Origin: a virus
Taxonomy: Duplodnaviria > Heunggongvirae > Uroviricota > Caudoviricetes
IMG/VR virus record: IMGVR_UViG_2541047826_000010
Reading direction: 5' to 3' (one strand)
DNA: 34,194 nucleotides
The position numbers were made by a program, and so were the translations under genes. Shown here piece by piece: positions 802 through 1,064 of the stretch (positions within the stretch are counted from its first letter, which is position 1; every line of letters starts with the position of its first letter). The notes under the pieces are model-generated. The model ran no database searches. It was given only the letters and a program-made list of their open reading frames with translations, and was not told the DNA's origin.

Positions 802-854
802 CCGGTTCTCCTCCTTCTCTTTTCTTATTGTGTTGCGCAGAACGCGCTTTACAG

Positions 855-875
855 ACATGTAAGTATAGACAGTGT
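855..875 (-). promoter_or_regulatory. candidate otsB promoter -10 element (TATACT at 862-867 on the minus strand, within TCTATACTTA)
   Basis: -10-like hexamer about 60 nt upstream of the otsB GTG, in the orientation of otsB; stationary-phase-type extended -10 context. No experimental support. Confidence 0.3.
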
Positions 876-1064
876 GACGGGGGTCGCCATTTGCAACGAA
901 GATGATTAGACTTGAGATAAATGACAGGGAATAAGTGAGATATTTATGGGAAGAACTGGGTCAAAATGGGAAGAGACTAGGAGGAATATGCAATAACCTT
1001 ACAGTATGTGAAAATCAGACCGGCCCGAAAAAAAACAGAACTCGCGCCAGCCTGATTGCAGATA

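Follow-up and report, generated by a model that had tools for sequence, protein, structure and literature searches.

The window, the 34,194-nt stretch of DNA analysed here, opens with otsB. This gene (1-801, minus strand; taken from the open reading frame list) encodes trehalose-6-phosphate phosphatase and has its GTG start at 799-801. It is 100% identical to otsB of E. coli ATCC 11775 and of many other strains. Positions 802-902, also on the minus strand, hold the native otsBA 5′ untranslated region and the sigma-S promoter. They are identical to the uninterrupted locus. The promoter-like motif TCTATACTTA that the first-pass annotation placed at 860-869 of the minus strand is found exactly there. 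The mapped otsBA elements could be placed on the window to within about 1 nt. The +1 falls at ~856. The -10 hexamer TATACT occupies 862-867, with C at 868. The -35 hexamer TGGCGA is at 884-889, and the alternative TTGCAA is at 891-896. In the published description the otsBA translation start is +56, the -35 is TGGCGA, and TTGCAA lies just upstream (Stoebel et al. 2009, PMC2744996). The published -35 TGGCGA, -10 CTATACT, +1, and 55-nt leader, all placed through PMC2744996, are unaltered in the window. The otsBA promoter elements and leader are intact.

A prophage adjoins this region, as the first-pass annotation had proposed. The comparison with the empty site and matches at unrelated host loci both bear this out. 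The phage end had been placed between roughly 900 and 1064. It does lie inside that interval, but at the extreme left and at one exact position, 902|903. Window positions 560-902 are 100% identical to uninterrupted otsB loci. A megablast search of positions 1-2400 against 5,426 complete E. coli genomes returned hundreds of matches that begin at ~903. The host genes beside those starts are unrelated and include yehY, yehK, ycaL, dcuC, rimK, lplA, dmsC, and hycE. The empty site in E. coli ATCC 11775 is ...ttgcaacgaaga|acagccaaccg..., which runs on into araH and reads ...gcaacgaaga^acagcc... across the insertion point. Strain C 237-04 carries the same phage end beside other host DNA (...gtacacg|TGATTAGAC). 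The match starts, the uninterrupted loci, and the C 237-04 flank together set the boundary exactly at 902|903, with the prophage opening 5′-TG. Alignment with an uninterrupted otsB upstream region, which the first-pass annotation had suggested as a check, thus gives a single insertion point.

The insertion point falls between araH and otsB, 101 bp before the otsB start codon and at about -46/-47 of otsBA. At the uninterrupted locus, the 11-pair stem of the araFGH terminator stops exactly at this point. The hexamer CGAAGA (897-902) is the first part of the U-rich tail of that terminator. The insertion is at the foot of the stem, so araFGH and its terminator stem now lie 37.6 kb from PotsBA, and no deletion is visible. 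The earlier statement that the insertion had replaced the sequence upstream of the otsBA promoter does not hold. The araFGH terminator and araH were displaced by 37.6 kb. The CGAAGA hexamer is also the predicted 6-bp target-site duplication, by comparison with three other insertions; a second copy is expected past the right end, where the window no longer reaches. Simple transposition predicts a right junction of ...TCGCGCGGCGCATCA|CGAAGA|ACAGCCAACCGTTG (also written as ...GCGCATCA followed by CGAAGA-ACAGCC). On the phage side, the noncoding left end (the attL equivalent) spans 903-1064 on the plus strand. It has its terminal 5′-TG at 903-904, where the matches of ~530 genomes begin. The junction is an ordinary one, in which a transposable prophage of a known type has its left end next to otsBA.

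Complete copies of the prophage were retrieved from three genomes. They are 37,566 bp long and end in ...GGCGCATCA-3′. The termini are TG...CA in four genomes, with TGATTAGAC... on the left and ...GGCGCATCA on the right. All three clean insertions are flanked by perfect 6-bp duplications (CCCTGC, ATTACT, and AGCAAG). The window copy is 99.96% identical to the C 237-04 prophage, and the window stops ~4.3 kb before the right end. The C 237-04 copy itself (locus positions 61 and 37458) has no target duplication. To its left is a glycoside hydrolase family 10 gene that is truncated and neighbours gadBC; to its right is dgcM. These flanks without a duplication suggest a deletion or rearrangement associated with transposition.

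The open reading frames of 1065-9153 are all on the minus strand, and the late genes are on the plus strand from 9382. The minus-strand early genes encode Mor, GemA, Gam, an ExeA-type AAA+ protein, a 589-amino-acid rve transposase, a DUF3102 protein, and helix-turn-helix (HTH) proteins. The plus-strand genes that follow encode lysis, Mu Gp27-like, portal, head, and contractile tail proteins. Pfam domains were found for Mor, GemA, Gam, AAA+, rve, and Mu Gp27. The mor gene (1065-1454, minus strand; Pfam Mor, 1.3e-43) encodes a transcription activator of the Mor/C family. It is the last gene of the leftward early operon. Its stop codon, which had been noted downstream of the otsB promoter region, is at 1065-1067. 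The gemA gene (1426-1875, minus strand; Pfam GemA, 8.3e-41) is Mu gp16-like. An AAA+ transposition helper is encoded at 4907-6112 on the minus strand (Pfam AAA_22, 3.8e-20). It is annotated as ExeA family in the RefSeq records of identical prophages and is a functional analogue of MuB. The DDE (rve) transposase, which presumably recognizes the terminal repeats, is encoded at 6084-7853 on the minus strand (Pfam rve, 1e-08). The domain search also placed a Gp27-family protein at 14504-15049.

Over 98-100% of its length, tblastn gives the transposase 68% identity with its BcepMu counterpart and 56-57% with transposase A of B3 and its relatives. In the BcepMu and the B3 records alike, the first gene is a Mor homologue that is transcribed toward the left end. 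In B3-like phages the early operon is inverted, and the transposition proteins are unlike those of Mu (PMC5977238). TG...CA termini and an rve transposase are named as characteristic of BcepMu-type elements (PMC2628397). RNA-seq of the B3-like phage Fc02 after induction recovered the pE operon, from ner to mor, on the reverse strand (PMC9936078). The early operon of the window phage does run toward otsBA, as previously noted, and both the strands of its open reading frames and the Fc02 transcripts (PMC9936078) agree with this. Judged by its sequence, the element is a 37.6-kb B3/BcepMu-type (Mu-like) transposable prophage.

Three other features of the gene complement were recorded. The tape-measure gene (26022-28973) encodes 983 amino acids, about 87 fewer than in related prophages (1,070 amino acids). 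The gap corresponds to a change in copy number of an internal ~260-bp repeat that is ~92% self-similar (window 27820-28372). A lone minus-strand open reading frame (11536-12012) lies between the regulatory region and the lysis genes. RefSeq names its product "ABC transporter ATPase", and it is a possible moron. The tail-fibre and assembly genes by the Gin-like recombinase vary in orientation and partners between otherwise identical prophages (locus L004 versus locus L006, ~1200-2850, in the right-end region beyond the window). Such variation would fit an invertible segment that sets host range, as the G region does in Mu.

Of the 5,426 complete E. coli genomes, 533 (~10%) carry the 162 bp of 903-1064, in every case on the chromosome. 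This left end is 100% identical in many of them and sits at dozens of different host loci. A large group of strains that includes MNCRE44 has one common insertion in ycaL, and many other sites are unique. The ycaL insertion appears to be clonally inherited, since the whole group has it. The whole 1-2400 query, that is, the araH-otsB insertion, was found by megablast in none of the 5,426 complete genomes, and no IMG/VR contig matched the exact araH-otsB junction. We also retrieved 47 loci with Mor relatives from other species. The left end could be delimited in 31 of them, each with different host DNA. Homologous left ends occur in 20 other genera, with unrelated flanks beyond the terminus.

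The two ends of the prophage share a repeated core. In the 38.5-kb prophage locus, GMGATAWWT occurs in four copies, at nt 12 and 35 from each terminus, and the copies are inverted between the ends. On the left, L1 is the 23-bp terminal repeat TGAGATAAATGACAGGGAATAAG (913-935, plus strand). It contains the core GAGATAAAT at 914-922 and the first GGGAATA at 927-933. L2 is the 23-bp terminal repeat TGAGATATTTATGGGAAGAACTG (936-958, plus strand). It contains the core GAGATATTT at 937-945 and a GGGAAGA, the second copy, at 948-954. A repeat search also found an L3-like element, GGTCAAAATGGGAAGAGACTA (959-979, plus strand), with the third copy, GGGAAGA, at 968-974. Within it, ATGGGAAGA recurs exactly 20 bp past its copy in L2. 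The L3-like element is confined to the left end and has no right-end counterpart. On the right, R1 and R2 are the 23-bp units that bear GMGATAWWT. The first-pass annotation had suggested comparing the junction with the other prophage end; that comparison matches the GMGATAWWT cores at nt 12 and 35, inverted.

The same arrangement is found in relatives. BcepMu and phiE255 have 23-bp imperfect direct repeats at both ends, described as putative transposase sites (PMC2920897). The BcepMu end descriptions used here come second-hand from PMC2920897 and PMC2628397, together with the sequence records. BcepMu L1, TGAGATATTTCCAAGGGAGAACG (nt 11-33), aligns base for base with L1 of the window. B3 shares this layout of the ends. 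We aligned 22 left ends from the E. coli-like, Brenneria/Pectobacterium, Dickeya, Xenorhabdus/Photorhabdus, and Pseudomonas lineages. The AGATA cores of L1 and L2 are conserved in 21-22 of the 22, and AGATA of L2 is present in all 22. L1 and L2 with their GMGATAWWT cores are most likely the predicted transposase-binding sites that would pair both ends. We infer this assignment, and more generally which protein binds which motif, by analogy and from the symmetry of the ends. The right end also has a conserved subterminal block of its own, ~nt 57-85 from the terminus. It reads CGTTTCATTATTTGAAAAAGAATTACA in the E. coli phage (locus L005, ~37960-38010) and CGTTTCGTGTGCGGCAAAAGAATTTCA in B3. Each end therefore has its own specific conserved elements.

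The GGGAA[G/T]A (GGGAAKA) motifs behave differently at the two ends. Four copies had been reported, at 928, 948, 968, and 982. Three are exact, at 927, 948, and 968, so the first was misplaced by one position, and the one at 982 reads AGGAATA. The exact copies are spaced by 21 and 20 bp and lie at nt 25, 46, and 66 from the left terminus. The first two fall in the inner half of L1 and of L2, respectively, and the third is one 20-bp step farther in. In the alignment, GGGA of copy 2 (948-951) is present in all 22 left ends and GGGAA of copy 3 (968-972) in 21-22 of the 22. GGGAATA of copy 1 (927-933) is less conserved (10-21 of 22). No indels separate the AGATA cores from the GGGAA elements across these 22 sequences. 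The two-turn-like phasing is thus a conserved property of B3/BcepMu-type left ends. The final 200 bp of the prophage contain no copy of the motif, so it is not present in inverted form at both ends. Because the right-end repeats lack it, GGGAA would not be required for generic end recognition. Its role at the left end could be a different one, for instance in packaging.

The first-pass annotation offered the repeats as either terminal transposase sites or host regulatory sites. They are phage terminal sequence and not host sequence, and the heptamer itself is not the unit shared by the two ends. As host sites of the otsBA promoter the repeats would have only their proximity in their favour, ~70-115 bp upstream of the otsBA -10. 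The possibility that they were native host sequence was tested directly. GGGAAKA is absent from the uninterrupted araH-otsB region, and it moves with the prophage, being found at hundreds of unrelated loci and in other genera. The empty-site alignment led us to reject the host-site reading, to which we give practically no credence. A chance cluster in AT-rich noncoding DNA is scarcely more credible. Short 7-mers do recur, and the 34-kb window has 13 matches to GGGAAKA on both strands against 6.5 expected. But at least three same-strand copies within 50 bp arose in none of 300 Markov-1 simulations of the window (maximum, two), which makes the cluster real and nonrandom. Copies 2 and 3 are moreover invariant while the surrounding sequence has diverged, and for them chance is refuted. 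For the imperfect copy AGGAATA (982-988), which is one mismatch from the pattern and is not conserved in relatives, chance is a fair description.

Farther into the left end is a conserved block, TTACAGTATGTGAAA (999-1013; TTTCACATACTGTAA on the minus strand). It overlaps the U-tract of the hairpin described below and a weak outward promoter-like match. The block, continuing to ~985, is near invariant across Enterobacterales left ends although its neighbours diverge. It is unique in the prophage, with no other copy at fewer than three mismatches. Compared by eye with the IHF, CRP, and LexA consensus sequences, it gave no convincing match. Candidate roles for the block are a pac signal, a host-factor site, and terminator context. 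The promoter-like match is TTCACA-16-CATATT (1012..985, minus strand, facing outward) and agrees at 9 of 12 positions. Its putative -10 is not conserved in other lineages, where the last base is T, C, A, or G, and for this reason the outward promoter was demoted to a low-probability rival. On the plus strand, 980-996 contains a strong Shine-Dalgarno-like AGGAGG followed by ATG CAA TAA, a two-codon open reading frame. It is not conserved in the Brenneria or Xenorhabdus relatives and is thus probably fortuitous.

A terminator-like stem-loop of the early operon (1010-1056, minus strand) lies between mor and the phage end. It was recognized as an inverted repeat, with the stem at 1014-1056 and UUUU at 1013-1010. 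The element CCCGAAAAAAAACAG at 1024-1038, which had been noted as a possible binding site, is present as described and makes the loop and 3′ arm of this hairpin. The hairpin has 15 pairs and a ΔG of -24.9 kcal/mol (z, -4.9), and none of 200 shuffled sequences was as stable. It is followed by only four U residues (GAUUUUCAC; UUUUCAC). A consensus terminator scan gave no hit. The scanner missed the hairpin because of its 11-nt loop and a T-run shorter than five. An Rfam scan of 700-1500 at an E value of ≤1 returned no RNA family.

The hairpin was folded lineage by lineage because MAFFT sets the 5′ arms of the lineages out of register. A stem-loop is found at the same place in all eight lineages tested, and the sequence of the stem is particular to each lineage. 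Its stability is significant in seven of the eight (z, -3.4 to -6.2; 0 of 200 shuffles as stable). The Photorhabdus hairpin is marginal (z, -2.1; 6 of 200 shuffles as stable). The number of U residues after the hairpin ranges from 3 to 8 over the lineages. It is 6-8 in Brenneria, Pectobacterium, and Dickeya and 3 in Xenorhabdus and Photorhabdus. The Brenneria, Pectobacterium, and Dickeya hairpins look like textbook intrinsic terminators. The first-pass annotation had seen no convincing terminator after mor. That claim is not supported, given a stable and positionally conserved hairpin at 1014-1056. From its structure, termination at the hairpin is likely, perhaps incomplete.

These features very probably belong together as an intact otsBA promoter, a B3/BcepMu-type left end from 903 on, transposase sites in L1 and L2, GGGAA subsites, and a terminating hairpin. 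The sequences compared show the junction, the family, the termini, the 6-bp length of the duplication, the architecture and conservation of the repeats, and the hairpin. The mechanism that we propose from them is conditional. The rve transposase would recognize the GATA-type cores and so bind all four units, L1, L2, R1, and R2. It would cleave at the terminal CA/TG, and the AAA+ helper would assist insertion with a 6-bp stagger. The GGGAA subsites, found only on the left, may add asymmetry between the ends in the same complex. GGGAAKA would then represent left-end-specific subsites of that nucleoprotein complex, as its position beside the cores suggests. The hairpin at 1014-1056 would end the early operon (ner to mor) and limit the transcription that leaves the prophage.

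In Mu, pac lies within the first ~55 bp of attL. Packaging in B3/BcepMu-type phages is reported to start at the left end, and a packaging signal is thus the main rival for the GGGAA pair. By this account, the 20-bp-phased TGGGAAG pair (947-953 and 967-973) would be a pac signal that the Mu Gp27-like small terminase recognizes, and only the GMGATAWWT halves would be transposase sites. TGGGAAG is confined to the left end and missing from the right, its spacing is fixed and conserved across genera, and the phage encodes a Gp27-family protein at 14504-15049. On the other hand, no pac site has been mapped in B3/BcepMu-type phages, and the motif overlaps L2, so that both functions would have to share DNA. 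BcepMu also has GGGAG in a right-end repeat. We consider the pac reading rather unlikely but the strongest of the alternatives to subsites of the transposition complex.

The other rival concerns the host operon. The insertion may have rewired otsBA through read-through, through the outward promoter at 1012..985, or through the AT-rich phage end acting as an UP element, so that trehalose synthesis would become partly RpoS independent or linked to induction. In its favour, the early operon is directed toward otsBA, this phage has a short U-tract, and TTCACA-16-CATATT faces outward. There is also a precedent: with IS10 POUT inserted in PotsBA, expression no longer depended on RpoS and fitness under osmotic stress rose (PMC2744996). 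In those insertions POUT faces otsB, and on their example a regulatory effect merits consideration. Against this, any transcript leaving mor would meet a strong hairpin whose position is conserved, and the putative -10 does not persist in other lineages. In lysogens the early operon is kept repressed, and a cell in which the phage is induced dies. The junction was found in 0 of 5,426 complete genomes and so gives no sign of selection. We regard rewiring as improbable. A more specific version, in which the prophage end is a portable regulatory module, seems marginally less probable still. Transcripts would run past a weak terminator with only four U residues or would initiate within the conserved TTCACA block; from -47 outward, AT-rich phage DNA would stand in place of the G+C-rich araFGH terminator; and otsBA would become partly RpoS independent. 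Read-through into otsBA upon induction, as suggested in the first-pass annotation, is possible. A regulatory effect on otsBA is possible but unsupported, and the reading that we prefer is an ordinary phage end beside an intact promoter.

For annotation, the analysis fixes the boundary to the base (902|903), leaves the otsBA promoter intact, and assigns the repeats to the phage. The architecture of B3/BcepMu-type ends has so far been a matter of prediction. Here, the core present at both ends (GMGATAWWT) is separated from TGGGAAG, which is present only on the left. This split provides candidates for the transposase sites on one side and for a pac or asymmetry signal on the other. Insertions of mobile elements at PotsBA are adaptive under osmotic stress, and a lysogen with the araH-otsB junction would therefore be a natural test case.

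The closest described phage is PhiKM (PQ738613), which is essentially the same phage. It is 99.8% identical over 903-1500, and its transposase is 98.6% identical. PhiKM and the prophages in ~10% of E. coli genomes differ from the window copy only in the insertion site. The junction is a further instance of an already known phage type.

Like the window phage, BcepMu and phiE255 (Bcepmuvirus) have mor leftmost and read toward the end, a transposase with 68% identity, and TG...CA termini. Both BcepMu ends also carry imperfect 23-bp repeats, at nt 11-33 and 34-56, whose cores are GAGATAWWT and CGCGATAWWT. However, the noncoding left end of BcepMu is 364 bp long, compared with 162 bp in the window phage. 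Its L2 lacks a clean TGGGAAG, and GGGAG is present in R2. Its host is Burkholderia, and the rest of the DNA cannot be aligned. B3 (Beetrevirus) and Fc02 share the inverted early operon ending in mor and a transposase A with 56-57% identity. The B3 left end reads TGAGAGAGAG-TGAGAAATAC...CGCGATAAAGTGGGAT..., with GGGA-type motifs only on the left, and its L2 also contains GATAAAGTGGGAT. B3 differs in being a siphovirus-type Pseudomonas phage with a weak hairpin after mor, and the conserved block TTTCACATACTG is not evident in it.

Mu attL and MuA resemble the present system in the TG/CA termini, the AAA+ helper, random insertion with a short duplication, and a pac near the left end. Mu attL (L1-L3) contains several ~22-bp transposase sites, asymmetric between the ends. 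The site sequences are unrelated, and the transposase here is of the rve, Tn552-like family (PMC2628397). The duplication here is 6 bp, versus 5 bp in Mu. Unlike in Mu, mor and not the repressor abuts the left end, because the early operon is inverted. The IS10 insertions in the otsBA promoter (PMC2744996) are similar in that a mobile element lies next to PotsBA with transcription pointing into otsB. They differ in position and effect on the promoter, since IS10 with its POUT is at +12/+13 or -11/-12, whereas the prophage is at ~-46, shows only a weak outward promoter-like match, and leaves the core promoter intact.
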